NCBI GenBank assembly: GCA_964291235.2
Contig: OZ219815.1
Span: 704,001 to 768,000 of the forward strand
Direction: 5' to 3'
From: Vicinamibacteria bacterium
GTDB lineage: Bacteria; Acidobacteriota; Vicinamibacteria; Marinacidobacterales; Marinacidobacteraceae
DNA: 64,000 bases
This document shows positions 4,556 through 64,000 of this stretch, in pieces. A model generated the notes under the pieces. It did not search any database and was not told the origin of the DNA. It was given only the letters and a program-made list of their open reading frames with translations. The position numbers and the translations under genes were made by a program. The number at the start of each line of letters is the position of its first letter. Positions within the stretch are counted from its first letter, which is position 1.

Positions 4556-5029
4556 TCAACCCCGGCGGAACCCTGCCGCTTCTTCCGTGCGCCGCAGGTA
4601 GCGGGGAAGCAGCGGAGGGTCCATGAAGGCGATCCGCTGCCGCTCCACGACCCACAACCGGGCGAGCAGGACGTTCAGATAGCGGAGTTCGTCCAGGGAG
4701 TAGCGGACCTCGCCGTGCTCGTACCGCCGGAGCCAGTGGCCCGGGAGATCCCTCGCGATCTCATACCAGTGAGAATCGACGGTCGCAGTGACCCGGCGGG
4801 CCGCTTCGACGGTGTGAGCCATCAGGTACAGCACCGAGTCCGGTTCGAGTAGGCGGCTGCTCGCGGCAACCGAGCGGATCCCGCGCAGGAGATAGATCAG
4901 GCACCACCGCACCTCCGGAGTGAGCGACTGCGGATCGGCGAGCATTCGCGGCGCCAGGAATGCGGCCGCCCCCTGCTCGTCGTCGAACAGGAGCCGGTAG
5001 AGCTCGGCGCGCAGCATGTCTCTGGGCAT
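4556..5029 (-). CDS. Hypothetical protein (157 aa)
   Basis: Protein-like composition, 15 nt downstream of the ASPIC gene on the same strand; no motif recognised. Confidence 0.65.
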   Translation of the reverse strand: MPRDMLRAELYRLLFDDEQGAAAFLAPRMLADPQSLTPEVRWCLIYLLRGIRSVAASSRLLEPDSVLYLMAHTVEAARRVTATVDSHWYEIARDLPGHWLRRYEHGEVRYSLDELRYLNVLLARLWVVERQRIAFMDPPLLPRYLRRTEEAAGFRRG

Positions 5030-5044
5030 GACCCACTCGATGAC

Positions 5045-8000
5045 TCAGCGTTGCCGCTCCCGGGTGGCGCCGGAACGCGAGGACGAGGTCTCCCCGGTCA
5101 CCTCGACCGGAGGTTCCTCGCCCAGGAATCCGTGACGGCCCTCGGGGCCAACGCGCCGCGTGTTGTATTCAGCCCGCCAGCGCGCCAAGGCCTCGGAATC
5201 CGGGTAGGCCCCCTCCGGATACGGGTAGCTCGGCATCCCGTGGAAGGGAAGAGGCGTCACGGTATGGGGCCGGGCGGAGTTCAGGTCCATGTCCTTCCCG
5301 AATCCGTCGGCAAACGCGAAGAACGTGCGCCGGCTGCCCGGGGCGGGCGGGGGAAGTTCCCGGGCGTCGAAGCGGAGCCGCACCTCGTCTCCGTGCCGGG
5401 CGATCACATAGCGATCGTCTATCGCAGCGAGGAGGGGCTGCACATCCCCGTACCGGGTGTAGCCCCCCTCGTGCGCGCCCCAGATGTCCCGGGCGGCCCG
5501 GGTGTCGTATCGGTATTCGGTCGGAGGAATTCCGCGAGGGCGGTGGGGTTCGGGATATCCCGCGAAGCCGAAGACCGCGGTCGTGGCATCGAGTCGCCAC
5601 TCCTGAAGCCGGGTGTCGGCGACCTCGGCGAGCTCGATGCGGTCCCAGTAGATCCGCATGTTCGTTCGGATCCGGAGCGGACGCCCGCTCTCGACCCCGG
5701 CATCCTCCAGCGGCACCACCATTGTCTTGGGCAGACCAGCCGGGAATCCCATCGGATCCACGGCGACCCGGAACCCGGTGTCTCCGGCAATCTCCAGGAC
5801 CGGGGGCTTGGCCTGGACGCCGGCCTGCGAGGCGGCGAGGTTGGAACTCGAGTCGGCGTAGTCCACCCATCCGTAGAGCAGGAGGACGTGTGGGACATCG
5901 GCCCGCACCCCGTCGAAGGTGAGCGTCAGCTCGTGGGGCTTCGCGTATCCCTTGAAGGGAAGCAGCGGAAAGTCGTCCACGTATTCGCGGTCCACCCGAG
6001 CGAGAGCCGCGGTCACATCGCGCTCGGACCCTTCTTCAGTTGAGGAGGACGCCCGGGAAGGCGGACGCCGATTCCTGACCGCGACGAGTCCGGGAGCGGG
6101 ATAGGGCGGGCCCGGCATCAGGCGTTCCTGGGCGAAGACATCCACGTCGTCTGGATGGTCGGCCACCCAAAGCGCCGCCCGATCGTAAAAGATGACCTCC
6201 TCGAGCTGGTTCACCCAGCGCATCTCGTAAGCGCCCTCCCGCGGGACCAGGGGAAACGCCTCCATCTTCACCACTTCGGCGGTATCCGGGAAGTTGTAGG
6301 TTCCGGGAGCCAGAAGGTTCCCAAGAGCGCTGCCGCCGAGAAAGTCGGTCACGAAGCGGATCCGTTCCCCGTCCCAGGCGTAGAGGACGGGACACGACGT
6401 GCCCTTTCGATTGAGCTCCTCCACCGACGCCACCGCCAGGGCCGGAACGTCGAGCTCGACCTGTTTCACCCCGCCGGGCCAGAGAAACCGGACGTAGTCG
6501 GCGGCCAGGGCCTCTCCCAGCCCGAAGTGAACGGGGAGATCGTTCTGCGACAGGTATCCCGAGGTGGTCTGCACCTGGCGGCGCTGGCTGACGCCGGAAA
6601 CCCGCACTTCGATCTTGGTACCCACGCCGTCGAGGTTGCTGCGGAGGCCTCGCGGACTCACGGCCATCCAGTTTCCGCCGCCCGTCTGATCATTCCGGAA
6701 GGCGAGGATGCGGCCCAGCGTGGTGCCGACCACCGCGTCGAGATCCCCATCGCCGTCCAGATCGCCGGTGGCCAGCGCCCGCGCCTCTTCCCCGGAGCCG
6801 AGCCTGGCTTCCGGCGCGCCCGCGCGGGAGAACCCCGCCGAGGTGTTCTCATAGAAGACGAGGGGAGCTGCAGCGTCGGCGGTGACCATCAGCAGGTCCA
6901 GATCCATGTCGTGGTCGGCATCGAGGAAGGAGACGCCGTGCCGGGCCCCGGGGACGCCGGCGCGCAGCAGGAACGGGGATCCGATGTCCGGAGAAAAGCC
7001 GCCAGCTCCTGATCCTCGCAGCAACATGTTCAATGCGCTGCCTTCGGCGGAGAGCAACAGGTCGAAGAAGCCGTCACGGTTGTAGTCGGCGGCCGCGGCG
7101 CCCCGCATCCGGGACGCGGTTTCGACGCCCCAGGCGCCCGCACTCTCCGTGAACGTGCCGACCCGGTCGTTCGAGAAGACCTGCACGGGACTGCCGTCGT
7201 TCACGACCAGGAAGTCCACGTCCCGGTCGTCGTCCCAATCCGAGAACAGCGAGAACAGACTCCGCCGCGCCCCGCCGTCCGTCCCGGTCTCCCCGGCTAC
7301 GTCGGTGAACGTGCCGTTGCCATTGTTCCGGTAGAGCCGGTTCGGAGCGCCTGGCAGGTCTTCCGGAATGCGGAGGACCGGAGGGACGGAATCGAGCCCG
7401 TCCAGCGAAGCGGGCGCGTAGTTGGCCACCTGGATGTCCAGATCGCCGTCATGGTCGAAATCGGCGAAGGTGGCCCCCACCGAGATGAGGTCTCCCTCGG
7501 CTCCCGAGCCTTCCGCCCGCGTGAAGAGAGGCCCGGTCTCGCCGGAGCGGTTGATGAACAGTGCGTTCGGACCGGCGCCGGCCGCATAGAGATCCGGATC
7601 CCCATCGAGATCCACGTCACCGACGGTCACACTGACCATCCCGCTGATTTCGAGGCCGGAGTTCTCCCACGCTTCGAAGCCGTCCCCGGTGTTTCGAAAC
7701 AGGAGCACCGATCCACCCCGCACGAAGAGGATTTCGGGCCGGCCGTCCCTGTCGAGGTCACGAATGGCGACCCCCGAGCCGAGCCGAGGCAGCAGGTTCC
7801 CGGCTACCCAGGCGGTCGAATAGTCCTCCGCGCTCAGGGCCTCAGGAAGTTCCACCACCGGATCCCCCGGGGACAGCTCCAGGTTCCACCCCGCGGTGGC
7901 TTCCGAGAAAGTGGCCCTTCCCGTCGTCGAGGGTTCGTCCTGGGCGCGATGAAGCGGCGCCGGGCGTTCCTCGACGGCCTCCGCATAAGGCCCGAGTTCG

Positions 8001-10722: not shown

Positions 10723-11280
10723 TCAGGCTCCGGGAGCCGCCTCTTCGAGCTCCACGCCGAGCCCGTTGGCCATGCGGTTCACGAAGCAAAAGTAGGACGC
10801 CACGGCACAGGCATCGTGAATGTCCCGGTCGGAGAGCCCGGCGTTTCGAAGCGGGTCGAGATCTTGCGGGCCGAGGCTCGACGGCGCTCGCGCCAGCTTG
10901 ATGACGTAGTTGGCGAGCGCCCGGAATCGGGGCGAAAGGGAACCCCCCTCCGGATCGCGGCAGAGGGCGTCCACCAGCTCCCGGTCCCTGGTCAGCCGGA
11001 GAAGACCCCTCCGGTGGTGCTCGATTCAATAGTGGCACTCGTTGACCACGGAAACGGCGACCGCTATCAGTTCCCGTTCGGCGAGGCTGAGCCCCGATTC
11101 GCCACGCATCAGGTGCTCGTAGAGGCTCAGGTGGTGCCCCAGCGTTTCCGGATTCAGACTGGACACCCTCAGGATGTTGTCCACCAGACCATCGGGACGC
11201 CGGTGGCGGCGGTAGAGAGAGCCGAGCTGACCCGAGCGGCCTGCCGCGCTGTCCGGCGAAATCATGGGAATCCAAGACAT
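10723..11280 (-). CDS. AhpD/CMD-family peroxidase-related enzyme, probable selenoprotein (CHYU, Sec85)
   Basis: ORFs 11026..11280 and 10723..10974 are in one frame joined through TGA at 11028-11026: ERELIAVAVSVVNECHY*IEHHRRG...AGLSDRDIHD...FCFVNRMANGLGV; 185 aa in total. Confidence 0.85.
10996..11014 (-). promoter_or_regulatory. Putative bacterial SECIS element
   Basis: After an 11-nt spacer from the UGA: CCGGAG-GGGUCUU-CUCCGG hairpin with apical G/GU. Confidence 0.7.
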
Positions 11281-11311
11281 CGGATGAACCGGAACGTAGG
11301 ATACCGGGCCG

Positions 11312-11797
11312 ATGCTTCAGATCGCCTGCGACGGCTCCTGCCTCGGAAACCCCGGGCCGGGAGGGTGGGCGGCGGTAATCCTCTCCGGAACGGGAGGGGA
11401 GCGGGTCCTCTCGGGAGGCGAACCGAACACCACCAACAACCGCATGGAACTCACCGCCGTCATCCGGGCCGTGGAAGCGGTGCCGGACGGCGTTCCGGCG
11501 ACCGTGTTGTGCGACAGTCAGTACGTGGTCAAGGGAATCACCGAGTGGCTCCCGTCCTGGGTGCGGCGCGGCTGGCAGACCGCGGGCCGCCGCCCGGTCA
11601 AGAATGCCGACCTGTGGCGACGTCTGGCCGCGGCACACGCGAAGCGGCCGGCCGTTCGATTCGAGTGGGTCCGGGGCCATGCCGGTCACCCCGGGAACGA
11701 ACGCGCCCATACGCTCGCTTCGGAAGAGGCCATTCGGCAAAAGCGGGACAAGTCCGCGCCCGGCGCGGTCCGTGGGCTTTTCGCGGCTAGGGGATAG
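11312..11797 (+). CDS. rnhA: Ribonuclease HI
   Basis: CDGSCLGNPGPGGW, TTNNRMEL, DSQYV, VKNADLW, WVRGHAGHPGNE. Confidence 0.96.
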   Translation: MLQIACDGSCLGNPGPGGWAAVILSGTGGERVLSGGEPNTTNNRMELTAVIRAVEAVPDGVPATVLCDSQYVVKGITEWLPSWVRRGWQTAGRRPVKNADLWRRLAAAHAKRPAVRFEWVRGHAGHPGNERAHTLASEEAIRQKRDKSAPGAVRGLFAARG

Positions 11798-16744: not shown

Positions 16745-19576
16745 CTAGAAGACGTGGCCGATGGTGAAATGCCACTGGCCCCGCGCCTGGTCGCCGATGT
16801 CACCCAACCGGATTCCATAGTCGAACCGGAGCGGCCCCAAAGGCGTATTCCAGCGGAGCCCGGCGCCGACGTTGTTTCCGAGGTCCTCCAGCCGGAAGGA
16901 CCCCACCTCGCTGTAAACACCGCCGTGGTCGGAGAAGACGGCGCCCCGCAGGCTCCCGAAGATGGGAAACCGCACCTCGATGTTGCCCACGATGAGCATG
17001 TTGCCACCGACCGGGTAGCCGCTCGGATCGAGTGGGCCCGCGCGGTCCAGCTTGTACCCGCGCAGCGTGGTCGCGCCCCCCGCGAAGAACCTCTCCGTGA
17101 TCGGGACGAGAGCCGGCTGATCCGCGCCCAGGGTCCACGCCAGGCCGAGCCGGCCCGCGACCGCGACCACGATCTGGTCTCCCACTGGAAAGAACAGGTA
17201 CTGCTGCCCCAGACCCTTCAGGAAGGGCGCCCGGGACCGGAGAACTGCAGACGACCACTCCACATCCATGATGCCAAAGCGTCCCCGGCGGGGATCGACG
17301 GGGTCGTCCCGGGTGTCCGTGACGACGGAAGCCGAAACCGTTGACAGCCAGAGATTGTCCGCGAAGTTGCGATCGATCTGATTCGGGTTGATCTTCAGGT
17401 CGAACAGTTCGCTGGTGGTCAGGTCATAACGCAGGAACACGTTTCGTCCCAGGATCCGGCGGGTCACCTGGACGCCGATACCCGAACGAATGAAGTCCAG
17501 GCTCTCCCGGTCCTGCGACTCGCGGAAGGCGCTCACGAAGATGGGCACGTCCCCCTCGACGCTCTCCGCCCCCCGGTAGGTCGCCACCATCCGGGTTCCC
17601 TTGAGCGAGAAACGGCCGAACACGCTCAGGGTCTGCCCCATCCCGAAGAGGTTGTTCCGGGTCCATTCACCCTCTCCCCGGACCTGCTCGCGCTCGCTGT
17701 ATCCCGCCCCGTAGCCGATGCTGGTGCGGGGACCCTCCGCCACCCGGATCAGCACGTTGCGCTCGCTGATCGGTTCCTCGGGCTCAAGGAGATTCACGTC
17801 CACACTGCGAAAAATCCCCATGGACACCAGGCGCCGGCGTATCTCGAGCAGATCGCCGCTCCCGAGGGGATCGCCCTCCTCGAAGGGAAGCCGGGACCGG
17901 ATGACGGAGTCCCGCGTGGTGTCGAGGCCTGCGACGATGATCCCCCCCACCGTGAAGTAGTTGCCCGGACGGATCCGGAAGATGACCTCCGCGTCGTGAC
18001 GGACCGGATCGACCGGAGCCTCGACGTCCACGACCGCTTCCAGGTATCCCCGGTTCCGGTGAAACGTCTCGATGTCTTCCCGGGCGCCGACGATGTCCTC
18101 GGCGACGTAGGGCGCTCCCGCCGCGATGGCGGCCACCTCGGACAGTTCCTCCTCGGTGAACGCCGCGCTCCCCTCGAAACGCACCCCCCGGACGGAGGCC
18201 GCCGGGCCCGCATCGACCCGGACGGTGAGGTCGAGCGCGAGCGCCTCCTCGGACGGCACGGGCGCACCCGGCTCCAGTGGCTCCACCTCTGCCTGGAAGT
18301 AGCCCCTTCGCCTCAGAGTACGGCGCACGCTGTCCGTCAGCGCCCTCCACTCCGCTACCCGGAAGGGCCGGCCGGGGCGGAGCGGCAGCAGAGCTTCGGC
18401 GACGGTGTCGACCTCGTTCGGGGGGACCCCCTCCGACGAGACGGACCCGACGACGTAGCGGGGACCCGGATCCGCGGCGAACCGGTAGGTCCGTTGCCGT
18501 CCGTCCGGACTCTCCACGCTCTCCACCGCCACGACCGCATCCCGGCGGCCCTCCCGCCGGAGTTCGGCAAGGAGTTCCTGTCGGGCGCCTTCGATGGCGT
18601 CGGGCGTCAGGGTCAGGTCGGAGAGGGATTCCACGACGTCTTCGGCCGCCCCGCTCGCGGCGCCGAACCCTTCCACCTCCAGGGTCACTTCCGGGCCGGG
18701 ATTCACCGACAGCACCGCGTGAACCCCTCCCGAGTCGAGAGGACGCCAATCGAGACTCGCCCTAGCGAACAAAAAGCCGCGATCCCGAAGCCGTTCCTCC
18801 ACCGCCGGCAGCCGGGCGAGGACCTCGGGCTCCACCCAGGGGTCGCCCGCGGAAATCCGGAGCGCCGGGATGAGATCCCTGGCGAGTTCCTCATCTACTC
18901 CCAGGACCTCCACCGTCTCGAACCGGGCCCGATCTCCCGCTGCCACCTCGAGGTCCAACCGCACGTCCCGGCCTTCCGGAACGGTTCTGATGTCCATTTC
19001 CGCCGCCAGGTAGCCCTGCGAGCGCAACCATTCCTCCGCCGCTTCAGCGCGCGCCAAAAGGTCGTCGGGCACGGCTTCGCCCACCTCCAGGCCGAGCCTG
19101 GCGATCAGTTCCAGGTCCTCGCCGGCGGGGGCATCGACAATGTTGATCTGGGAGATTCCGGGAACGGGGTCGAGTTCGAAGACGAGTCGGACCCCTCCGC
19201 CCGGCGCCATCTCGGAGAGCACCCGGACATCGCGAAAACGGCCGAGCGCGAAAACCTGCTTCACCGATTGCCGCACGACCAGCGGCCGCAGCCGCATTCC
19301 GGCGCGCACCGAGATCAATCGGGACACCTCCTCCGGTATGGGTTCGACGCTGTCGTCCGCCCAGCGCACCACCACCGAGTCCACGCGCTGTGACAGGGGG
19401 TCCGCGTCCCCGCCGGGTTCGGTCTGGGCAACGGCAAGGCGCCCGGCCGGCATTCCCGACAAGGCGCCGGCCAGGAGGAACGTTCCGGCGCGCCAGACGA
19501 GCCGGGAACGAGACCCCGACCGGAGCCGGCCAGCTCCGATGCTCGCGGCAGGCGCCTCGGCACGCACGTCAACCAT
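16745..19576 (-). CDS. BamA/TamA-family Omp85 outer-membrane protein (POTRA repeats plus barrel)
   Basis: POTRA-like repeats (RSQGYL, RRRGYF, RNRGYL), NLFGMGQ, RFFAGGATTLRGY, TPLGPLRFDYG, C-terminal FTIGHVF. Confidence 0.92.
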   Translation of the reverse strand: MVDVRAEAPAASIGAGRLRSGSRSRLVWRAGTFLLAGALSGMPAGRLAVAQTEPGGDADPLSQRVDSVVVRWADDSVEPIPEEVSRLISVRAGMRLRPLVVRQSVKQVFALGRFRDVRVLSEMAPGGGVRLVFELDPVPGISQINIVDAPAGEDLELIARLGLEVGEAVPDDLLARAEAAEEWLRSQGYLAAEMDIRTVPEGRDVRLDLEVAAGDRARFETVEVLGVDEELARDLIPALRISAGDPWVEPEVLARLPAVEERLRDRGFLFARASLDWRPLDSGGVHAVLSVNPGPEVTLEVEGFGAASGAAEDVVESLSDLTLTPDAIEGARQELLAELRREGRRDAVVAVESVESPDGRQRTYRFAADPGPRYVVGSVSSEGVPPNEVDTVAEALLPLRPGRPFRVAEWRALTDSVRRTLRRRGYFQAEVEPLEPGAPVPSEEALALDLTVRVDAGPAASVRGVRFEGSAAFTEEELSEVAAIAAGAPYVAEDIVGAREDIETFHRNRGYLEAVVDVEAPVDPVRHDAEVIFRIRPGNYFTVGGIIVAGLDTTRDSVIRSRLPFEEGDPLGSGDLLEIRRRLVSMGIFRSVDVNLLEPEEPISERNVLIRVAEGPRTSIGYGAGYSEREQVRGEGEWTRNNLFGMGQTLSVFGRFSLKGTRMVATYRGAESVEGDVPIFVSAFRESQDRESLDFIRSGIGVQVTRRILGRNVFLRYDLTTSELFDLKINPNQIDRNFADNLWLSTVSASVVTDTRDDPVDPRRGRFGIMDVEWSSAVLRSRAPFLKGLGQQYLFFPVGDQIVVAVAGRLGLAWTLGADQPALVPITERFFAGGATTLRGYKLDRAGPLDPSGYPVGGNMLIVGNIEVRFPIFGSLRGAVFSDHGGVYSEVGSFRLEDLGNNVGAGLRWNTPLGPLRFDYGIRLGDIGDQARGQWHFTIGHVF

Positions 19577-19584
19577 CCGGGAGG

Positions 19585-22500
19585 TCAGAAGCTCCGGTGG
19601 AAGCGGACATCAACGCCGAGCGAGCCGTCCTGGTCCCGCGAGAAGATCCAGGAGACGGGACCGCTCGGGGTGTACTCGACCACGATGATGGACTCCTCGG
19701 CCGACGAGAGGCTCGAGGAATAGCGAACGTTGAGGTCTCGGGTGACCTGCTTGCCGAGCGTGACGCGGGCCGTCGGGTTGCTGAAACGTCCGATCATGAA
19801 GGGATCGATGCTCACCCGGTCGATGCCGAAGACCCTCCCGGCGCGCCGGCCGATCATGTTGCTGAGTTGCTGACTCAGGAGACTCGCCGCCGAGGCGGCC
19901 GCGAGTTCATCGTCGCTCGCCGCCGTGAGGAGATCCTGTTCGGGAGCTCCGGAGAGGAGCCGGAGGATGTCCGCTTCGCGCAGCGGGGGTTCGGAACTCA
20001 GGTTCGCATCGATCTGCTCCGCCGTTCCGGACGCGGCGAGCCGCACCCGATAGCTCCGCACGCTGGTTTCCGCTTCGATGTCGAAGACGGGCTCGATCCC
20101 CTCCGGATCAATGAAATCCGCACGTCCTTCGACGATCTGGAAACGGTGGGCGCCGAAGTAAACCTCGCCACCAACGAGATCCGCACGCCCAAGGACCGCG
20201 GGGGACCCTGCCGTTCCCCGGAGGCCGAAATCGGCAGCCGCGTCGAGTTGAAAAATGGAATTACGAACTGCGAAAGGAGAGTCGGTTCCGACCTGGATGT
20301 CCATTCGAAGTTCGTCCAGATACCCGCTTGTTTCCGTCTCCTCGACCCGTGAGACGCTGTTCAGGTCAGCGAGAATGCTGGCAAACAACTCGTATTCCCG
20401 GCTCCAGACGGCCTCGTCAAGCCGTACCTCTCCGGTGAGCAGACGGCCGCTCTGGTCCCCCAGAAGCCGCAGGTCGGCATCCACGGTCGCGCTCAGGTCA
20501 CTGGGGTAGCGCAAGCTGGAATCGGACAACTGAACCCGGAGGTCGGTCGCGGCGAATTCCGCGTCCTCGATCGAGATCGTTCCGGAAACGATGGCGTCCC
20601 CGCCACCCATGCGGCCGATGACCTCCGCGATCCGGAGCGTCCGGCGATCGAAATCGACAACGCCCTCCACGTCGCTGAGAGCGTGCGGAAACCCTTCGAC
20701 CCGGAAGGAACCGTTCCGGATCGTCCCGGTACCGAGCACTTCCGGCTCCGTCCAGGGCCCCACCACCGCGGCCTCGAGGTTGAACTGCCCGTCCGCGAGG
20801 AGCCAGGGCACGAAGGGCGCCGCAATTCTCAGCGATGTCTGCCCGAGAAGCGCGAAGTCGAGAAGCTCATCGTCGAGGCCGATCGACCCGGCCAGGCCGA
20901 GCTGGCTGTCCGCGTGGAGCAGCCGGAGCTCTTCCACGTGAACGCGGGCGTCTTCAAGGCGAATGCGGGTCGGTCCCCCGGATTCGGCGATGAAATCGGG
21001 CGCCGAAATCTTCAGCGTTTCGAGGGTGGCGGAGCCGGTCATCCATTCGTCGAGGGGATCCTCGATGTGGAAGTCACCGGACCCGCCAACGACGATCGAA
21101 ATCCCCCGTTCGCCGGGCGAATCGAAGAGGATGGGAGCAACGTCGATTCCACGCATCGTGACGGTTCCGGCGCCGTCGGTTCCGAGCGGGACCCGTCCCT
21201 CCATCCTGAAGGATGCGTCTCCCGAATCGAGCGCGCCGCTCCCCTCGAAGTCTTCTCCGTGGACGAACCCCGTGATGTTGCCGGGGCCGAGCGCCAATCC
21301 GAGCACCGCGGCATCCGGGACGCGCGCCTCGAGACGCAGTTCGGGAATCAGAAGATCGCCGCCGACGTCGAGACGAAAATCGGAGCGTATGGAAATCCAT
21401 TCGGGCGCCAGCCCAGGGGTCAGCGGGTAGTCGTGGCCGGTGACGAGGCCTTCCATTTCCCAGTCCACCAGCCCGATGTCCAGGACCCCTTCCGCGGTGC
21501 CCTCCCGAAACACACCGCTCATGGGAGCCAGGCGGGCCTTGTCACCGTCCAGGTCCCAGTGGATGGCAACCTCGTCGAACGGTTGCTCCAGCACGTGGCC
21601 CCCGGAACCGACGACCGATCCCCCGCCCGTATAGCGTTCGTTCTGCCGCACGGTGTGGCTCCGGCCGGTTACCAGGCCGTCGGCTTCCAGGTCCCACTCC
21701 AGGAAATCGATGATCTCCCGGGCGTCCCAGGCCTCCCAGTCGGCCTCGAACTCCATGTCCGGGTACTCGACGGCAGCGCGGTCGAAGACCCCCGAGGCGG
21801 AGATGCGCCCCTCCCCGTAGCGGGCGCTCAGACTGTCGAGGAAGATGCTGTCCCGGTCAATCCGGCCCGTCGCAATGAGCGTCTCCGTCTGGATGGTGGA
21901 GAAGCGCATCAGCTGACCTTCGACCTCCCCTTCAAGCACCAGGTCGGGCCACCGGCCGCGCACGAGGCCCTCGAAACCTCCGGCCCCGGCGACGTCCCAA
22001 AAGGTCGTCTCGGGATCCTCGCCGAAGAACACGCGCCGCAGCTCCTGTTGGACGGCATCCGCCTCCGCTGATTCTCCGGCGAGGGCGGACGCCGCGATGC
22101 TGGCATTGCCGGACCGGGGGTAATGCCCCTCCACACCGCCGCGAAACGCCTCTCCCTCAATCACGACGCGGCGGATTTCGGTTGCCGTGTCGTCCATGCG
22201 CAGATCCGCTTCGAAACCCAGCGGAAGCTCTCCCGGCCCGACCTCGTCGGGTCTTTGTCCGGTCGCCCGGATGGTCCCGGTCATCAGCCCGGGGTCGGCG
22301 AAGGGCATCCGCAGATCGGCATCCAGGGTGACCTGGGAACGCAGCGAGGTCGTCCTCCCGAACATGCCTTCAACGGCAGGACCGAACCATCCCTCCTCGA
22401 CGCTCAACAGGATCTCCGCCGGGTTTTCCTCCCGAGGCTGTACTTGAAGCAACTGGAGCGTGGCCGGGCCTTCCGACAAAAGGCCCTCCGAGGAGAGGAT

Positions 22501-23499
22501 TTCGACACGCTCGGGGTCCCAGTGCACAAGTCCCGTCCAATCGCGGAGCGGCACCCCGTAGAAACGGCTCTCCGGCAGTACGAAGGTGCCGTCGATGCCG
22601 AGGCCGTTTTCCTGAAACCCCGCCGTCCCATCGAACTGGAGCCAGGGGGCGCTCTCTGTATCAATTCCCTCGAACTCGAACAGGAAACGGCCCAGGCGGC
22701 CCGCGTCCCCGCTGCCCACCATCCGCAGCCGGCCAGCGAGATCGTTGGACATATCCATGGTGCCATCGAAGCGCACCTCGAGCATGTCGGAACGAAGTTC
22801 GAGGAAGTCGAAATGGAGGTCGTCCTCGCGGATCCGGATTTCCGCGGACAGGGCCATCGGAAGGTCCGGCCGCTCCCAGAGACGGATGACTCCCCAGCCG
22901 GACCGGATTTCGCCGTCCACGCCTCCGTCCTCGCCGGTTCGCAGGCTGATCGCCACGTCGTCCGCACGCACTTCCCAGGGGGTCGGCCGATTCCGGTACC
23001 CGATGGTGGTGCCCGACACCGACATCCGGTTCGACGAAAAGGAAAGCCGGGTGGCCACGGCCTGAATGGCGGGCCCGAGCGGGGCCGATTCAGGCCGCGG
23101 CTTTCCCCCGTCATCGAGGCCCCAAAGACCCACCCCCTCGACGGTGAGGCTCTCCAGATGGAGGCGCGCGGGGAAAAAAGAGCGCCAACTCAGCCGGCCC
23201 CGGATCCGGTCGATCGAAAACGCCGGCGGCGCCGGCCCGATCTCCATCGGCTCCCTCCCGATCTGAAGACCCCGCAGGACAAACTCGCCTTCGGCGACGG
23301 AGATCTCGAAACCGCTGGCCGCCACCGGGCGGCCGAGCGCGGCGCTCAAACGACTGGTGACCTGAGCCAGGACGCGGTCGGAATCCAAATTCGAGACGAC
23401 CCACAGAGCCAGCGCGCCAGCCACCACAAGGGCGGCAAGAGAACCCGCCAACAAGAGCCAGAAGCGGCCAAAACGGCGAGTCGAAGTTGAAGAGGTCAC
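19585..23499 (-). CDS. TamB/AsmA-like translocation and assembly module protein
   Basis: N-terminal TM anchor, long beta-taco-like region, C-terminal DUF490-like LSSEPPLREADILRLL...TLGKQVT; adjacent to the Omp85 gene. Confidence 0.88.
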   Translation of the reverse strand: MTSSTSTRRFGRFWLLLAGSLAALVVAGALALWVVSNLDSDRVLAQVTSRLSAALGRPVAASGFEISVAEGEFVLRGLQIGREPMEIGPAPPAFSIDRIRGRLSWRSFFPARLHLESLTVEGVGLWGLDDGGKPRPESAPLGPAIQAVATRLSFSSNRMSVSGTTIGYRNRPTPWEVRADDVAISLRTGEDGGVDGEIRSGWGVIRLWERPDLPMALSAEIRIREDDLHFDFLELRSDMLEVRFDGTMDMSNDLAGRLRMVGSGDAGRLGRFLFEFEGIDTESAPWLQFDGTAGFQENGLGIDGTFVLPESRFYGVPLRDWTGLVHWDPERVEILSSEGLLSEGPATLQLLQVQPREENPAEILLSVEEGWFGPAVEGMFGRTTSLRSQVTLDADLRMPFADPGLMTGTIRATGQRPDEVGPGELPLGFEADLRMDDTATEIRRVVIEGEAFRGGVEGHYPRSGNASIAASALAGESAEADAVQQELRRVFFGEDPETTFWDVAGAGGFEGLVRGRWPDLVLEGEVEGQLMRFSTIQTETLIATGRIDRDSIFLDSLSARYGEGRISASGVFDRAAVEYPDMEFEADWEAWDAREIIDFLEWDLEADGLVTGRSHTVRQNERYTGGGSVVGSGGHVLEQPFDEVAIHWDLDGDKARLAPMSGVFREGTAEGVLDIGLVDWEMEGLVTGHDYPLTPGLAPEWISIRSDFRLDVGGDLLIPELRLEARVPDAAVLGLALGPGNITGFVHGEDFEGSGALDSGDASFRMEGRVPLGTDGAGTVTMRGIDVAPILFDSPGERGISIVVGGSGDFHIEDPLDEWMTGSATLETLKISAPDFIAESGGPTRIRLEDARVHVEELRLLHADSQLGLAGSIGLDDELLDFALLGQTSLRIAAPFVPWLLADGQFNLEAAVVGPWTEPEVLGTGTIRNGSFRVEGFPHALSDVEGVVDFDRRTLRIAEVIGRMGGGDAIVSGTISIEDAEFAATDLRVQLSDSSLRYPSDLSATVDADLRLLGDQSGRLLTGEVRLDEAVWSREYELFASILADLNSVSRVEETETSGYLDELRMDIQVGTDSPFAVRNSIFQLDAAADFGLRGTAGSPAVLGRADLVGGEVYFGAHRFQIVEGRADFIDPEGIEPVFDIEAETSVRSYRVRLAASGTAEQIDANLSSEPPLREADILRLLSGAPEQDLLTAASDDELAAASAASLLSQQLSNMIGRRAGRVFGIDRVSIDPFMIGRFSNPTARVTLGKQVTRDLNVRYSSSLSSAEESIIVVEYTPSGPVSWIFSRDQDGSLGVDVRFHRSF

Positions 23500-57736: not shown

Positions 57737-58066
57737 ATGACTCCAGCGAACGACCGACTGCACGGCCACCTCGATCTGCTGATCCTCTCGTCGCTCGCCG
57801 GGGGCACGATGCACGGCTGGGCCATCGCGCAGCGCCTGCGGATCGTGTCGGAGCGGGTGTTCGAGGTCGGTCAGGGCTCCGTCTATCCCGCGCTTCGCCG
57901 GTTGGAAGCCGCGGGCTGGATCCGTGCGAAGGTGGCCGTCTCCGAAGCTGGCCGTCAAGCCCGTTTCTATTCGCTCACCCCTGCCGGGCGGCGGCAGCTC
58001 GCCACCGAACGGGAGGAGTGGGCCGACTTCGCGGCAGCAGTTCAGCGGGTGCTGGACACCGTGTAG
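57737..58066 (+). CDS. PadR-family transcriptional regulator (acidobacterial type)
   Basis: LHGHLDLLIL, MHGWAIAQR, QGSVYPALRRLE, RFYSLT..GRRQL. Confidence 0.92.
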   Translation: MTPANDRLHGHLDLLILSSLAGGTMHGWAIAQRLRIVSERVFEVGQGSVYPALRRLEAAGWIRAKVAVSEAGRQARFYSLTPAGRRQLATEREEWADFAAAVQRVLDTV

Positions 58067-58070
58067 GAGT

Positions 58071-60734
58071 GTGCTCGCGCCGTCGCTCTTTCGTCGGCTT
58101 CGGCTATTGGTGCGCGGCCATCGGGTAGAACACGAACTCGACGCGGAAATGCAGCTCCACCTGGAGCTGCTCGAGGCCCAGTTTCGGCAAGAGGGGCTCG
58201 ATCCCAGGGAAGCCCGGCGCCGAGCCCGCCTCGAGTTCGGTTCGCAGGAGTCCTTGCGCGCCGAGGCCCGCGACGCTCACGGGTTGGTCCGGACCCGCGA
58301 GTTTCTCGATGATCTCGCCCACGCGGTGACGGCTCTGCGAAGGACCCCCAGGTTCACTTTCGTCGTCGTATCGGTGCTCGCGCTGGGGATCGGAGCCACG
58401 GTCGCGATCTTCAGCGTGTTGAGCGCCGTGTTGTTGCGGCCCGTGCCCTTTCCGGACGGCCAGCGGGTCGTAAGCCTGGCGTGGAACTACGGTGACTACG
58501 TTTCCCCTGATCTGACGTCGGCCAAGTTTTCGTACTGGCGAGAGCACAGCCAGTCGTTCGAAGTGATGGCGAGTTGGCGGCCGTTTTTCGGACGCGTGGG
58601 CGAAGTCGGCGAGATCACCGGCGCTCAAGGGCTCAGAGTCACGGAGGGGTTCTTCCGCGTCCTACGCATGCCACCCACCGCGGGCCGGGTATTCGCGGAA
58701 GACGAGTACCAATCCGGGGGCGCCAAGGTCGCGGTGGTGTCTCGCGCGTTTTGGCGCCGGCACTTCGGCGAGCGCCTGGACGTGTCCGGTCGCGTTTCCA
58801 TCAGGGTGGAGGAAGAGCCCTACGCGATCGTCGGACTGCTTCCGGAGGACTTCGCCTTCCCCTACGAGTCGAGACCGGTGGAGATCATCGTCCCTACCGA
58901 GGTCGCAGTGGACCCTGACGACGAGGCGGCAAACTGGCCGGCCCTCGCAAGAGTCGCTGATGACATCACGATCCGTGAGGCTCGGACCGAGGTGGGGTGG
59001 CTGAATACCGGCTTCAGAGCGACCTACCCGCAGCAGGCCGCCGAGGAGGAACCCGGAATGCTGCTCGGCTCCTTCGCCGAGCTGTACGTCGGCGAAGCGG
59101 TGAACGCGATCTGGATCCTGATGGGTGCGGTCGCCGCGGTCCTCCTCATCGCCTGCGCGAACGTGGGCAGCCTGTTCCTGGTCAGGGCAGTGCGGCGCCG
59201 GGGAGCGATGGCCATCCGCGAGGCTCTCGGAGCGACAGAGAGCCGGATCCTTCGACTGGGGGTGTTGGAGGCCGTCCTGGCCGCTTCCGCGGCGGGCGTG
59301 GTCGGGGTCGTACTCGCGATCTGGGGCGCCAACGTGCTCGTCGTCCTGGCGCCGGTCCAACTGCCGCTTCTGGGTGCGATCGAGGTTGACTGGAGAGTCC
59401 TGGCATTTGTGATCGGCAGCTCGCTGACCGCGTCCGCCGTGGTGAGCCTGGTGGCGGCGTGGCCTGGAATGCGCCGGGGCATGTGGCGCACGCTTGGACA
59501 TGGTTCCCGGACCACGGCTGGGCAGGGCCGGTTGCAGGAGGTGCTGCTGTCGGTGCAGACGGCGCTGTCGATGATCCTGCTCGTGGGGGCGGTCTTGCTC
59601 TTCACCACCTGGTCGAACCTCAGGCAGGTTGACCCGGGGTTCGATCCCGGCGCCCTCGTAGCCGTGCAGTTGCCGATCAGGCCACCCTCGTATGACACCT
59701 CCGAGCGGCTCGATCAGTTCACCCGGGGTGTGATCGAAGGCGTCCGCGGCGCCGGTGGCGGTGCTGTCGTCGCCGCAGCGAGCAGTCTCCCCTTCGAGCG
59801 GGGCCTGAACTTCCCGATCTCGATCGCTGGACGCGCCGAATTCGGTGGTTCGGTCGAGCTGCGGACCGTCACCGAGGACTACTTCCGGACGCTCGCGGTC
59901 CCGGTGATCCGTGGGCGGTCGTTCACTGCGATGGACGCCAAGGGCGCAACCCCGGTCGCCATCGTCAACGAGACGTTCGCACGCAGGTACTTTCCAGAGG
60001 GGGAGGCGATCGGACAGCGCATCGACCTCGGGCGTCGGGGCGACATCTACCGGTACCCCTCCCTCAAAGGCCTTGGGATTGTGATCGTCGGCGTCGCCGC
60101 CGATGTCCAGGACGTCTCGTTCCGGGCCGCGGTCCGTCGCACGATGTACCTGCCGCAAGCCCAGGCGCCGGACATCTTGGCCAACATCCGTCCCGCGATG
60201 CCGGTGTTTGTGGTTCGGAGCAGCTTGCCCCTGCAGCGGCTCGAAAGTGAGTTCAGGCAGGCAATCCGCGCCGTGGATCCCGCGCTTCCCGGCCCTCAGG
60301 TCTTTCCGCTGAGCCAGACGCTCGCAGATTCGCTGGCCCGGGAACGCTTCGGCACCATACTCGTCTCGCTTTTCGGCGCTCTCGCGCTCCTCCTGACCGC
60401 GGTAGGCGTTTACAGCGTCCTCGCCCAGGCCGTGCGGTTGCGTCGCCGCGAAATCGGCATCCGCATGGCCGTAGGAGCAAGCGGCGACGCAGTATTGCGC
60501 CTGGTCCTCGTGCGAGGCCTGCTCCCCATCGCGATCGGAATCGGCGTCGGCCTCGTAGGCGCCGTGATCCTGTCGCGCCTCCTAGAGGCCTACCTGTGGG
60601 GCGTAACCGGCACTGACGCCGTCACGCTCGGTGTGGCCGCCGCCGGAATCCTCGCCGTCGCAACCCTCGCCTGCTGGATCCCCGCCCGAGAAGCGGCGGC
60701 GGTTGACCCCGTCACCGCACTGTCTTCGCAGTAG
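58071..60734 (+). CDS. ADOP-type duplicated ABC (MacB/FtsX) permease
   Basis: ELDAEMQLHL prefix, LALGIGA..AIFS, LLIACANV, REIGIRMAVGA, IPAREAAAVDP; no adjacent ATPase. Confidence 0.92.
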   Translation: MLAPSLFRRLRLLVRGHRVEHELDAEMQLHLELLEAQFRQEGLDPREARRRARLEFGSQESLRAEARDAHGLVRTREFLDDLAHAVTALRRTPRFTFVVVSVLALGIGATVAIFSVLSAVLLRPVPFPDGQRVVSLAWNYGDYVSPDLTSAKFSYWREHSQSFEVMASWRPFFGRVGEVGEITGAQGLRVTEGFFRVLRMPPTAGRVFAEDEYQSGGAKVAVVSRAFWRRHFGERLDVSGRVSIRVEEEPYAIVGLLPEDFAFPYESRPVEIIVPTEVAVDPDDEAANWPALARVADDITIREARTEVGWLNTGFRATYPQQAAEEEPGMLLGSFAELYVGEAVNAIWILMGAVAAVLLIACANVGSLFLVRAVRRRGAMAIREALGATESRILRLGVLEAVLAASAAGVVGVVLAIWGANVLVVLAPVQLPLLGAIEVDWRVLAFVIGSSLTASAVVSLVAAWPGMRRGMWRTLGHGSRTTAGQGRLQEVLLSVQTALSMILLVGAVLLFTTWSNLRQVDPGFDPGALVAVQLPIRPPSYDTSERLDQFTRGVIEGVRGAGGGAVVAAASSLPFERGLNFPISIAGRAEFGGSVELRTVTEDYFRTLAVPVIRGRSFTAMDAKGATPVAIVNETFARRYFPEGEAIGQRIDLGRRGDIYRYPSLKGLGIVIVGVAADVQDVSFRAAVRRTMYLPQAQAPDILANIRPAMPVFVVRSSLPLQRLESEFRQAIRAVDPALPGPQVFPLSQTLADSLARERFGTILVSLFGALALLLTAVGVYSVLAQAVRLRRREIGIRMAVGASGDAVLRLVLVRGLLPIAIGIGVGLVGAVILSRLLEAYLWGVTGTDAVTLGVAAAGILAVATLACWIPAREAAAVDPVTALSSQ

Positions 60735-60801
60735 GCCCCAGCGACTCGGCACCGTGCGTCCGGCACCGTAGTCCCACTTGGACAGATGGCGGGGACCGCT
60801 T

Positions 60802-60968
60802 GGACCGCCGACCTCCAGGTCGGCATCGCGCGGGAGCGCGAAACCAGCGCTAACAGCGCTGCACCCTGCCAAAGAACCACCAAGACGGCACGGCGCGCTT
60901 CCAAGGAACCGCTGGCCATTTCCCCCGGTGCGGGCCTTCAGACCGGCATCGCACCAGAGCGCGCAACC
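60802..60968 (-). repeat. Two REP-like elements (one intact, one degenerate)
   Basis: 60802-60845 GGACC-GCCGACC(TCCA)GGTCGGC-A-TCGCGC(GGGA)GCGCGA-AACC; degenerate copy at 60927-60968. Confidence 0.72.
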
Positions 60969-60969
60969 C

Positions 60970-62226
60970 TCAGGTTCCCGCCAGTAATCGTTGCAGCCGT
61001 GGGTGCTGGGTGCTCACCAGATGGTCTAGGCGATCCCGCATCCAGGCTACAGCGTCGTCGAATGTCGCGTTCGTCTGGCCGTCTGCAGCTTCCGGAGGGA
61101 ACGGTAGTTGCGTCTCACGCTGAAACCCGATCCTCGGCCGTCCAGCATTGTCCGTCCAGTGCGCCAGGTCGTCGCCCAACCGACTTGGCAGCTCATCCAT
61201 AGCAGCCCGGACCTGGGTAAAGACTCGCTCCGCCTGAGGAATTCCTTTCCGGCATGTCAGATAGCACCCGATGGTCCGTTGCTGCCGGTACAGATAGCCC
61301 ACAAATGACAGTCCCCAGCCACCGAATCCCGAATGCCGCACTTTGACATAGATGGCCGATTCGTGCGTCACCTCGGGGACATCCACAGTTACGTCGGAGA
61401 AGGTGTAGTCGTGTAGAACCGCCGTCCAGAATCGGACGTTCTCCTGCTGGTAGTCGGAAAGCGCTTCGCTCGATTCAGGTTTAGCGAGGTCGCTGGGCCC
61501 GGGTTGCACGACGCCACCCTCGACAACGAACCTCTTGACTATCTCTGTCCGCGCCAAACACCGTGGTTGCACGACGATGCGTCCAGCTGTATCGCGGTAC
61601 AAGGCAGCCTCGACGAGCGCAAGCGTGAAATGCAGCCCGCTGTAGCGTTGGACGAACTCCACAATGCTTTCCACGCCCTCACGAATACCGTCGCCGATGA
61701 TCAGAAGTAGAAACTCGCCCCGCGCGAGGTGTCGGGTAACGTTGTCCACAAAGTCCGCTTCTTTTACGTCGGGCGACCGCGCGCGTACCAGTTCGTAGAG
61801 GACATTGCCCTTGCGTCCCAAGGCTATGGACACCTGTCGCTGCAGGTCCTCGTAGTTCCACGAGGCGAACTCCTTGGCGTAGTCGAGAATCTGCCCGATT
61901 ACTTCACGACGCGCCTGCGGATTTCGCCAGAGCTTGAACTCCGCGAGAATCACGCGGCCCAGCGAGTTGACGTATAGCGCGTCCACGTATCCGGCCGACG
62001 TCGCCAGTTCACGACAAACGGGGACCGGACCTGCGTAGGCGGCATCGATCGCCGCGATTGGCAGCGTGCCAGGGAATCTGAAGAGCAGATCCTGGAGCGA
62101 CGACTCGTTTATGCCGCCTTCGGCAACAGGCGTACCGAGCGGGATGCGGTGCAGCACTTCTTCGGACGATTCGCGGGCCGGATCGATACGGACCAACTCG
62201 CCATATCTGTCGTCGAGTTCTGTCAT
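60970..62226 (-). CDS. NucS-like PD-(D/E)XK nuclease domain protein with DUF4268-like C-terminus
   Basis: NESSLQDLL, RELAT..GYVDAL...ILAEFKL.RN..ARREVIGQILDYA; ATG at 62226. Confidence 0.72.
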   Translation of the reverse strand: MTELDDRYGELVRIDPARESSEEVLHRIPLGTPVAEGGINESSLQDLLFRFPGTLPIAAIDAAYAGPVPVCRELATSAGYVDALYVNSLGRVILAEFKLWRNPQARREVIGQILDYAKEFASWNYEDLQRQVSIALGRKGNVLYELVRARSPDVKEADFVDNVTRHLARGEFLLLIIGDGIREGVESIVEFVQRYSGLHFTLALVEAALYRDTAGRIVVQPRCLARTEIVKRFVVEGGVVQPGPSDLAKPESSEALSDYQQENVRFWTAVLHDYTFSDVTVDVPEVTHESAIYVKVRHSGFGGWGLSFVGYLYRQQRTIGCYLTCRKGIPQAERVFTQVRAAMDELPSRLGDDLAHWTDNAGRPRIGFQRETQLPFPPEAADGQTNATFDDAVAWMRDRLDHLVSTQHPRLQRLLAGT

Positions 62227-62335
62227 CACGGCACGCGTTGGTTGTCGCGGCAGTACTGCCACAGGTAGGCGTCGACCCGCTGCCGGCTAAGTCCGTACTC
62301 CGTGCTGAGAAAGGTGACCATTTGCTCGAAGTTGA

Positions 62336-63088
62336 CTATCGGATAATTGTGTCTTCTTTCTTGCTGTCCATGGGCTCCCAAAAACCGCTCGTGTCGTTAT
62401 ACCTATAATGTGTCGTGTTCTCATTACTGAGTAGTGATGGCGGAAGTGGATTCGCAGCATACTTGTTGTGATATACGCTCAATTGCAGAAAGTAGCCGCA
62501 CTTCGGCGCTTTGTGCTCCTCCTCCCGCCACGGCCATCTCTTAGACAAGACTGCCACGGCGCTGATTGACGTGTTCCGGTCGGGAGCCATCCTGTCCCGT
62601 CCACTTCGCTTGAATTCATCGCGGCTTCTATCGGGAATTCCATTGACGAGAGTTATCACCATCTTGGAATCTCCATACATAGCGTCCGCAATACAGTTAG
62701 AGTCGAAATGATGGGCCATGTTGTTCTCCCGATCAGCATAGAGAACTAGGATGCCGTAACACGCTCCGTCGACATGCATCATGCTGTTCTTGATCTGGCT
62801 CTTGGCTTCTAGGATCTTTTGTCTGGCCTTCTGGCCGATTTCCACCGTATCCGGAGACATCGTTATGGTTGTTCTGCCGCGTATCGTTAGACCGTCTATT
62901 TCCAAGTCCTCGTGATGTTCAATACCGCGCGGGTCATATTCAAGTTCCTTTACTTCGGCAACAATCACTGCACCGCCAATGTCCAAGCGACGGTCTGCGG
63001 TCTTTACGCCGCGTCGTGGTGGAATGATGCAACATGCTATCTGTTCCACGGCACAGTAGTTGTCAAAGAGTCGTTCCGACTTATTCAC
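62336..63088 (-). CDS. Hypothetical protein, possible restriction-endonuclease fold; low GC
   Basis: SERLF..., KTAD...IVAEVK pattern, ISAVAV...YHNKYAANPLP; visibly AT-richer than the flanks. Confidence 0.65.
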   Translation of the reverse strand: MNKSERLFDNYCAVEQIACCIIPPRRGVKTADRRLDIGGAVIVAEVKELEYDPRGIEHHEDLEIDGLTIRGRTTITMSPDTVEIGQKARQKILEAKSQIKNSMMHVDGACYGILVLYADRENNMAHHFDSNCIADAMYGDSKMVITLVNGIPDRSRDEFKRSGRDRMAPDRNTSISAVAVLSKRWPWREEEHKAPKCGYFLQLSVYHNKYAANPLPPSLLSNENTTHYRYNDTSGFWEPMDSKKEDTIIR

Positions 63089-63117
63089 TTCCGACTTTGG
63101 CGGGACGTTCCCCGAGG

Positions 63118-64000
63118 CTAATTGTATGAATTTTGGGCGCCACGTTCCAGAAGCTCAGTAATCTGGGACTCGACGTCCTTGGCGCCCAAGACCTGCGCAA
63201 GATGGGCGAGTGCAAGTCCGTACCCGAGCCCGAGACGGCCCAGCCATAGGAACAGTCGAACGTAGCTCGTCGGATTCCCGGCGTCTGCGAGCCCGCCATC
63301 CGCCAGCGGCAAGCTCAACGACAGCGGGGTCGGGTGGTCGTATGTCGACAGTAATCCCGATCTCGCTTCTTTGGCCCACCAGTCACAGTAGAACTCATTG
63401 AACCCGTATTCTGGGGGCACAGACGGCCAGACCCGGGCCATCTGCGCAAATGCGGCCCGCAACTCTGTCGCCATCGCGTGGACGCCGTCGACATCGACAT
63501 CGCACGCGGAAATCGCCATCGTGTGAAGGCACACCTTGCGCAAGCGCCGGACCCAATCCGGCTCGTCCGCTCCGATCCTCCGATTTGGTGTATCGATCCG
63601 CGCATGGATCCGGGCCAACTCGCGAAGCAGGTCTATTTGTTTCCCGCACCGGGTCCGCTGCCGCTCCACGCCTTCCGCCGCCGCATGCATTCAGTCTTCC
63701 ACCACGGTGTTGACACCGGCCATCGCCGACATCGCAGCGCGCCGAAGGTCGGCTGAGGTTGCCCGCCCTTCTCTCAGTCGCCCTAGCGTGGCTTCAACCC
63801 TTCCTTTGCCGTCATCTCCGGTGACAGGGAACAATGCGGCGTACGCGTTCATGGAGCCCACCTGCTCCACTAGGTAGTCCATGAAGCCCGCGAAGGCCAA
63901 TGCGGCTTGCCACGTGTTCGTCGATCCGACGCCGCCGCGCCACGTGTGCCCCCTCAAAGTCCCATCGCCGTGGCAGAAGTGCTCGCTCAGGTGCGCGTAC
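63118..64000 (-). pseudogene. Hypothetical gene interrupted by an in-frame TGA (or two abutting genes); 5' end outside window
   Basis: Frame open from the window edge (YAHLSEHFCHGDG...) to TGA at 63693-63691, immediately followed by in-frame ATG at 63690 and 190 more codons. Confidence 0.5.

Follow-up and report, generated by a model that had tools for sequence, protein, structure and literature searches.

An AhpD-like Gene Divided by an In-Frame UGA in a Vicinamibacteria Genome: A Probable Selenoprotein of a Known Family

Introduction

Does the TGA triplet that divides an AhpD-like gene of a Vicinamibacteria bacterium end translation, or is it decoded as selenocysteine (Sec)? The question is raised by a locus on contig OZ219815.1 (assembly GCA_964291235.2), of which a stretch of 64 kb (positions 704,001 to 768,000 of the forward strand, out of a contig of at least 1.34 Mb) was analyzed here; this whole stretch is referred to as the window, and coordinates are given within it. 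On the minus strand of the window, two short open reading frames (ORFs) share one reading frame and are separated by TGA at 11028-11026. An earlier reading of the letters alone (hereafter the sequence-only reading) had proposed that the two ORFs represent one gene for a recoded redox enzyme, with Sec in place of the second Cys of the AhpD CxxC motif and with a hairpin resembling a selenocysteine insertion sequence (SECIS) shortly after the UGA. Comparison of the locus with its relatives leads us to conclude that codon 85 of this gene is very probably read as Sec; the evidence comes from the identity of the codon in related genomes, from the protein sequence that continues past it, and from the position and sequence constraint of the hairpin.

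A Single Reading Frame for a Predicted AhpD-like Protein

Read from 11280 to 10726 on the minus strand, the locus forms a single frame of 185 codons whose sole interruption is the TGA at 11028-11026 (codon 85). Because of this in-frame TGA, translation with table 11 yields two ORFs, both present in the ORF list: an N-terminal ORF of 84 aa (11026-11280), which runs from the ATG at 11280 and ends in ...VVNECHY, and a C-terminal ORF of 83 aa (10723..10974), whose GTG start is codon 103 of the full frame and which gene callers report as a separate “protein” (the database fragment P0026). The true stop codon identified by translation (10723..10725) is likewise a TGA, and the hairpin test revealed no SECIS-like hairpin 3′ of it.

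The read-through protein matches TIGR01926 (NCBIfam, peroxidase-related enzyme) with 140.3 bits (cutoff 81.8); the match covers amino acids 19-177 and profile positions 15-174 of 178, and thus lies on both sides of the UGA. A match to Pfam CMD (PF02627; 6.5e-17) was also found. The model for canonical AhpD, TIGR00777, was not reached by the read-through protein (20 bits; cutoff 191.95), nor was NF041238, the model for the AhpD-related CFYUT (seleno)protein (50.4 bits; cutoff 175), of which the C-terminal half alone was matched in a model of 357 positions. Eleven distinct PDB sequences match at E ≤ 0.001, and the top match, 3c1l (5.2e-28), aligns across the break, with its CxxC facing C82/U85. 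An AlphaFold model computed from an alignment of homologs is all-helical, with ten helices, a mean predicted local distance difference test score (pLDDT) of 92.0, and a predicted template modeling score (pTM) of 0.88, and places the UGA codon at the start of helix 83-97; Foldseek returned template modeling (TM) scores of 0.83-0.88 to 3c1l, 6k40 (an alkyl hydroperoxide reductase of D. radiodurans), and 2oyo. Translation, family models, structure model, and Foldseek matches all describe 10726..11280 as a complete coding region, and on the modeled structure the region is a single gene with a single AhpD-like domain fold; the proposal that the two short ORFs are one TIGR01926/CMD-family gene broken by TGA alone is upheld.

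With the UGA translated as Sec (U), the catalytic motif reads C82-H83-Y84-U85-I-E-H88-H89. The UGA (11026..11028) takes the position of the second Cys of CxxC and is followed four residues on by His89, as the sequence-only reading had stated; the coordinates and motifs that it gave were all correct. Residue conservation was counted among the 150 best family representatives. Cys82 (11035..11037), the first Cys of the C-x-x-U redox motif, is Cys in 136 of these, and Glu70 (11071..11073), which is located 12 residues ahead of Cys82 and corresponds to Glu118 of M. tuberculosis AhpD and Glu36 of PA0269, is Glu in 140; Tyr84 is conserved in 139, and His89 (11014..11016), which corresponds to His137 of M. 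tuberculosis AhpD and His55 of PA0269, is His in 142. Column 85 itself is Cys in 123 of the 150 representatives. The spacing of Glu70, Cys82, Tyr84, Sec85, and His89 is that of the AhpD proton relay. These data support the prediction that the product is a 185-residue AhpD-like thiol/selenol oxidoreductase of the TIGR01926/COG2128 type, a protein that shows every feature by which the family is defined at the sequence level.

UGA and Cys Codons in Related Genomes

A search among proteins of similar length returned 23 matches, 20 of them full-length and at most 52% identical; at column 85, 18 of these 20 homologs carry Cys, while P0003 carries Trp and P0008 carries Gly. Among shorter proteins, the search returned 77 matches, and every one of them is a half (29 N-terminal and 48 C-terminal), as had been anticipated for standard gene callers. 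All 29 N-terminal fragments break off after query residue 84, their last residues being C-[H/F]-Y, and 37 of the 48 C-terminal fragments begin at residue 103, the same residue as the 83-aa ORF of the window. One fragment of each kind is the window’s own; leaving it out and adding two longer fragments from the similar-length search gave 30 foreign N-terminal fragments (61-89% identical), all of which stop at the same column, in the form ...C-[H/F/R]-Y. Public protein catalogues systematically present this AhpD-like subfamily in pieces.

At the nucleotide level, a scan of species-representative genomes provided 80 loci. Opposite U85, 31 of these have TGA, 41 have TGC, and 8 have TGT, with no instance of TAA, TAG, or TGG; each of the 80 loci therefore has either TGA or a Cys codon at this column, which is the Cys/UGA pairing that the sequence-only reading had pointed to. 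The 31 TGA loci belong to three phyla, with 17 in Acidobacteriota, 13 in Gemmatimonadota, and 1 in Chloroflexota, and the other 49 loci are of the Cys form. Acidobacteriota TGA loci include eight of Vicinamibacteria type (67-84% identity) as well as loci from Blastocatellia, Chloracidobacterium, Pyrinomonadaceae, and Thermoanaerobaculia. An 81-row tree places every one of the 32 UGA forms, together with 7 Cys forms, in one subfamily with a Shimodaira–Hasegawa-like approximate likelihood ratio test (SH-aLRT) support of 100; the window lies within a 9-row clade composed entirely of UGA forms (support 99). The Sec/Cys label changes 3 times on this tree, as compared to a mean of 25.4 changes after shuffling, and none of 500 shuffles gave a number as low. 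From these alignments, the presence of TGA at the catalytic column is far beyond chance, and Sec use in the AhpD-like subfamily looks old and mostly vertically inherited in Acidobacteriota and Gemmatimonadota.

Some catalogue entries have neither Cys nor a break at the Sec/Cys column. Gly was found in 12 of the 150 family representatives as well as in P0008, and Trp in 4 of the 150 as well as in P0003, with the remaining active-site motif intact in each case. Because genetic codes 25 and 4 read TGA as Gly and Trp, respectively, these entries may be Sec codons that the gene caller read through under the wrong genetic code.

In three Longimicrobiales-type loci (L018:3005-3262, L019:162-234, and L021:3076-3328), a tRNA-Cys(GCA) gene is located about 3 kb upstream of the UGA-form gene and is preceded by tRNA-Gly in two of the three; this arrangement is probably incidental synteny.

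Coding Constraint Past the UGA

Selection on the two sides of the UGA was compared in the window and the eight closest Vicinamibacteria-type loci. Beyond the TGA, these nine sequences remain open in frame for another 96-129 codons. The median pairwise ratio of nonsynonymous to synonymous substitution rates (dN/dS) is 0.17 in the 79 codons preceding the UGA (dS finite for 35 of 36 pairs) and 0.23 in the 94 codons following it (36 of 36 pairs), and 1307 of the 2304 differences downstream fall at third codon positions. Between the window and its nearest relative, L001, dN/dS is 0.22 before the UGA and 0.13 after it. Residues 86-99 (IEHHRRGLLRLTRD), which precede the restart codon, are identical in eight of the nine sequences, and L007 differs at two residues. 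Judged by these substitution patterns, purifying selection after the TGA is as strong as before it.

The gene neighborhood is conserved as well. The order amidase, PhzF, RNase HI, AhpD-like protein, ABC-F ATPase, and tetratricopeptide repeat (TPR) protein is kept in seven of the eight Vicinamibacteria-type loci, with L006 rearranged; all five neighbors find a match in seven of the eight, L003 having no match for the amidase. The neighbors are 58-92% identical across these loci, and the AhpD-like gene is 67-84% identical.

If this were a pseudogene or an artefact derived from an ordinary AhpD-like gene of the Cys type, one changed base (TGC or TGT to TGA), through nonsense mutation or through an error of sequencing or assembly, would suffice to produce the break, and a single window cannot exclude such an error. 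The same TGA is present, however, in 31 independently assembled genomes and at the end of all 30 foreign N-terminal fragments; the sequence downstream of it evolves with a dN/dS of 0.23 and contains no further stops or frameshifts, and synteny and divergence of the AhpD-like gene match those of the neighboring genes. We regard an origin of the TGA in decay or error as hardly credible.

A second explanation holds that the gene is truly split, i.e., that the UGA terminates translation and that polypeptides of 84 aa and 83 aa (the latter from the GTG at codon 103), or the first one only, are made. Translation with table 11 gives exactly these two ORFs, public catalogues list both separately, and a conserved split would also be expected of a functional two-piece protein. 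On the other hand, residues 86-102, which lie between the UGA and the restart codon and include the active-site residues His88 and His89, are in frame and identical or nearly identical in all nine close relatives. In the structure model, the UGA falls at a helix start inside a single compact domain; a split would cost the catalytic CxxC its second residue, and homologs of the Cys form are single chains. In addition, the interrupting codon is TGA in 31 of 31 cases and never TAA or TAG, a restriction that is predicted by Sec decoding and not by mere termination. We therefore consider a functional split very improbable, if somewhat less so than decay or error.

A change of the genetic code was considered and rejected: TGA terminates 20 of the 30 window ORFs with family matches (TAG terminates 9 and TAA 1) and is thus an ordinary stop codon in this genome segment.

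The SECIS-like Hairpin

The hairpin that the sequence-only reading had placed 11 nt after the UGA, CCGGAG-GGGUCUU-CUCCGG, was recovered at 10996..11014 and is SECIS-like. It is better described as a 7-bp stem, CCGGAGG/UCUCCGG (with one G-U pair), that starts 11 nt past the UGA and closes a 5-nt loop, GGUCU, starting 18 nt past the UGA, with an energy of -9.8 to -10.9 kcal/mol. The published model of the bacterial SECIS (bSECIS), as given in the legend to Figure 2 of PMC13188914, comprises a loop of 3-9 nt, a stem of 4-16 bp, G in the first two loop positions, a UGA-to-loop distance of 16-37 nt, and a minimum free energy of at most -7.5 kcal/mol; the window hairpin, with a loop of 5 nt, a stem of 7 bp, a spacing of 18 nt, and -9.8 kcal/mol, falls within this model. 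Stricter criteria, modeled on fdhF (loop 17-19 nt past the UGA, stem of at least 6 bp, loop beginning with GG), select only 2 of the 1318 UGA triplets in the window.

In 29 of the 32 UGA sequences, the hairpin starts 12-15 nt from the U of the UGA and has GG in its loop, which begins 16-18 nt past the UGA; this common hairpin has two sequence forms, CCGGAGG/GGUCU and (C)ACGGRG/CGGGN or GGY. The other 3 UGA sequences, all from Thermoanaerobaculia (L035, L037, and L050, each at 6247-6291), have CGACCUC-CGGGCC-GAGGUCG, a hairpin with a 7-bp stem and a 6-nt loop that lies 24 nt past the UGA and represents a third SECIS form within one protein subfamily. Across the subfamily, the hairpin is rebuilt in three forms at nearly one place.

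Synonymous sites are constrained within the hairpin. In the nine Vicinamibacteria-type sequences, including the window, 3 of 5 fourfold degenerate sites inside the hairpin are invariant, whereas outside it the gene has 48 such sites, of which 3 are invariant (Fisher p = 0.008); the T of the loop GGU is among the invariant sites of the hairpin, and T occurs at only 6% of fourfold degenerate sites. The Cys-form locus L012 encodes the same G-A-x-L-R residues with different synonymous codons and has no hairpin. Stem cells are paired at 98.4% in the nine Vicinamibacteria-type sequences and at 78.1% in a second clade, while controls in which the stem was slid along the alignment reached at most 69.8% and 54.4%, respectively. 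Median hairpin energy is -7.4 kcal/mol at TGA loci and -5.6 kcal/mol at Cys loci (Mann–Whitney p = 0.002), a discrimination that is real but modest in GC-rich DNA. Conserved position and constrained synonymous sites speak for a function of the hairpin, as far as can be judged from the aligned sequences.

Sec Decoding, Evidence That Weighs Against It, and Recoding to Another Residue

A number of observations weigh against Sec decoding, and these concern both the hairpin and the decoding machinery. Folded in a context of 41-69 nt, the hairpin is no better than shuffled sequences (z of +1.4 to -0.4; z of -1.6 for the hairpin alone), and thermodynamics alone was dropped as an argument for this reason. 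Simple hairpins that fall within the bSECIS model follow 156 of the 1318 UGA triplets in the window (11.8%), so that the hairpin taken by itself is no more than expected by chance and is weak evidence. A simplified bSECIS test (contiguous stems only; bare-hairpin energy of at most -7.5 kcal/mol) is passed by 18 of the 31 TGA loci but also by 13 of the 49 Cys loci. Covariation within clades is not significant, as the observed score was attained in 143 and 24 of 500 shuffles, respectively, and it is not claimed as proof; no more than one stem pair per clade changes on both sides. Because within-clade covariation is weak, most of the stem conservation could ride on the encoded peptide, H-H-R-R-G-L-L-R.

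With regard to the machinery, ARAGORN identified tRNA-Met and tRNA-Leu but no tRNA-Sec in the window, and Rfam at gathering thresholds found the same two tRNAs and no match to a SECIS family there; ARAGORN also found no tRNA-Sec in the 31 TGA loci. NCBIfam models for selA, selB, and selD match none of the 138 window ORFs that are 150 aa or longer, and E. coli SelA and SelD, used as tblastn queries, found no match in the window and the 80 loci (924,996 bases); E. coli SelB gave four weak matches in this set, each to the GTPase domain and none in the window. Since the contig measures at least 1.34 Mb and the window covers 64 kb of it, absence of the Sec machinery from the window says little. A screen for a second selenoprotein in the window considered 433 in-frame TGAs flanked on both sides by 30 or more open codons, of which 10 passed a composition filter; among these 10, a redox motif is present at the AhpD-like gene only, and because no second candidate was found in the window there is no independent sign of Sec use in this genome.

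These negative results also enter into a further explanation, in which the UGA is recoded to a residue other than Sec, e.g., to Cys, through a suppressor or Sec-like tRNA such as a SelB-dependent tRNA(Cys) of the selC* type or an acidobacterial allo-tRNA. Recoding of this kind predicts the same conserved UGA, the same hairpin, and the same open frame downstream, and no Sec machinery was found in the 64-kb window or in the flanks of the 80 loci. Suppressor-like and non-canonical allo-tRNAs have been reported from Acidobacteria (PMC5389517, in the portions available), and a Sec-tRNA-mimicking tRNA(Cys) of delta-proteobacteria is described there as one that “may function as opal suppressor.” The same portions of that paper report selC* itself from anaerobic Firmicutes, Thermodesulfobacteria, Nitrospirae, and Proteobacteria, and do not name Acidobacteria among its hosts. 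Reading UGA as Cys would bring no advantage over TGC, yet UGA has been kept in 31 species-level genomes from three phyla with only 3 changes of state; AhpD-like CxxU proteins are, moreover, a recognized Sec family, and a general suppressor would be costly because TGA is the usual stop (20 of 30). Recoding to another residue is accordingly improbable in our assessment, although a little less so than a functional split. If it were true, a clade of aerobic soil bacteria, i.e., Vicinamibacteria-type Acidobacteriota together with Gemmatimonadota, would keep a “selenoprotein-style” gene without selenium, its UGA being recoded in a SECIS/SelB-like manner.

Under Sec decoding, which we favor, a ribosome that arrives at the UGA would meet the hairpin CCGGAGG-GGUCU-UCUCCGG 11 nt on, with its GGU-containing loop 18 nt on; an elongation factor of the SelB type carrying Sec-tRNA(Sec) would bind the hairpin and deliver Sec, and translation would then run to the true stop at 10725-10723. 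The product would have a proton-relay active site composed of Glu70, Cys82, Tyr84, Sec85, and His89, with Sec in place of the second Cys. The selenolate would be the likely attacking group and might form a selenenylsulfide with Cys82 or with a partner peroxiredoxin or peroxide. A further prediction of Sec decoding is the presence of selA, selB, selD, and tRNA-Sec in the organism, together with a requirement for selenium.

Neighboring Genes and Other Features of the Window

RNase HI (11312-11797, plus strand) is encoded divergently from the AhpD-like gene, with 31 bp separating the two start codons (11280-11312 in the window); because this gap is so short, the promoters of the two genes must overlap coding regions or one another.

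The TPR protein gene (1237 aa) ends with a TGA at 5045-5047 and is followed by an in-frame ORF of 157 aa (4556-5029, minus strand) with coding-like composition and no family match. No redox motif was found at this TGA, and the 157-aa ORF is most simply an adjacent gene.

An ORF of 1304 aa with no NCBIfam match (19585-23499, minus strand) is located directly upstream of a gene encoding a BamA/TamA-like Omp85 protein (16745-19576, minus strand); this arrangement is reminiscent of a translocation module of the TamB/TamA kind. A duplicated permease of the ADOP family is encoded at 57924-60734 on the plus strand (695 bits; cutoff 622) and fits the acidobacterial origin indicated by the related loci. 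At the end of the window (60001-64000), GC content is 0.609, as compared to 0.65-0.69 elsewhere, and the minus-strand ORFs at 60970-62262, 62336-63088, and 63118-63690 have no NCBIfam match; this segment may be acquired DNA.

Comparison with Known Systems

The fdhF gene of E. coli K-12 has its UGA at codon 140, followed after 11 nt by GGUUGCA-GGUC-UGCACC. The window hairpin resembles this SECIS in the 11-nt spacing, in the 7-nt 5′ arm of the upper stem, and in a GGUC(U) apex from 18 nt, and the comparison with fdhF drawn by the sequence-only reading holds in spacing and apex. The two differ in that in fdhF a U of the 5′ arm is unpaired and a lower helix extends back to the UGA, whereas the window hairpin is a plain 7-bp stem with no bulge; the bulged U of the fdhF stem has a role in SelB binding.

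Among characterized relatives of the protein, M. tuberculosis AhpD has a relay composed of Glu118, Cys130, His132, Cys133, and His137, and PA0269 of P. aeruginosa one composed of Glu36, Cys48, Tyr50, Cys51, and His55 (both as described in the available part of PMC3141380). The window protein shares their spacing, Glu-(11 residues)-Cys-x-[His/Tyr]-Cys-x-x-x-His, and differs from both in that the second Cys is predicted to be Sec; PA0269 chains 2o4d and 2ijc match it both in sequence (1e-7) and in fold (TM 0.67). No peroxiredoxin model matches any of the 138 window ORFs, and hence no ahpC neighbor was found among them; the neighbors are the ABC-F ATPase, RNase HI, PhzF, and amidase genes. The nearest solved structures include 3c1l, 2pfx, and 2oyo, which are structural-genomics entries with no assigned function, and 6k40, which is named alkyl hydroperoxide reductase. 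The CFYUT type represented by NF041238 (“hypothetical protein 1” of the Sargasso Sea, according to the published description) is also a CxxU selenoprotein family with the CMD fold, and the window protein is not a member of it.

Selenoproteins of the AhpD-like family were first predicted in environmental bacteria, in line with the sequence-only reading: AhpD-like COG2128 proteins with a CXXU motif were described as a new family from the Sargasso Sea metagenome, with 27 sequences (PMC1088965), and “AhpD-like 1” (COG2128, CxxU) of the Global Ocean Sampling (GOS) data comprised 299 selenoproteins and 902 Cys homologs (PMC2398784). In 2006, AhpD-like (COG2128) selenoproteins were listed for two sequenced genomes, and Acidobacteria were credited with 3 selenoprotein families (PMC1794560). 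A table in a 2026 review has the row “AhpD-like protein, TIGR01926, CxxU” (PMC13188914), and the AhpD-like family serves as the browsing example of BSepDB (PMC13326102); these statements are taken from the portions of each source that were available. The sequence-only reading’s description of the gene as “hidden” is thus not sustained in the sense of novelty, the AhpD-like CxxU family having been catalogued already (PMC1088965, PMC2398784, and PMC13188914), and is sustained in the sense of a split annotation, in which 84-aa and 83-aa “hypothetical” fragments are now corrected to one 185-aa redox enzyme.

Within the literature on selenocysteine retrieved for Vicinamibacter and for the selenoproteome of Acidobacteria, which consisted of incidental or general papers, the clade is not named; supplements and BSepDB may list members. 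In the parts of the sources available, published members of the family are drawn from marine metagenomes, from a Clostridia genome, and from one GenBank accession whose taxon is not stated; the clade of the window differs from these in that it consists of Vicinamibacteria-type Acidobacteriota with Gemmatimonadota relatives. The gene shares with the published family the assignment to TIGR01926, the CxxU motif with Sec at the second Cys, widespread Cys homologs, and a bSECIS hairpin with G in the apical loop directly after the UGA. Its value lies in annotation, and it adds members and a lineage to the family without changing what is known about selenoproteins: on the basis of its predicted protein and recoding signals, the gene extends a selenoprotein family known since 2005 by a further member, which comes from a lineage that has been little described.

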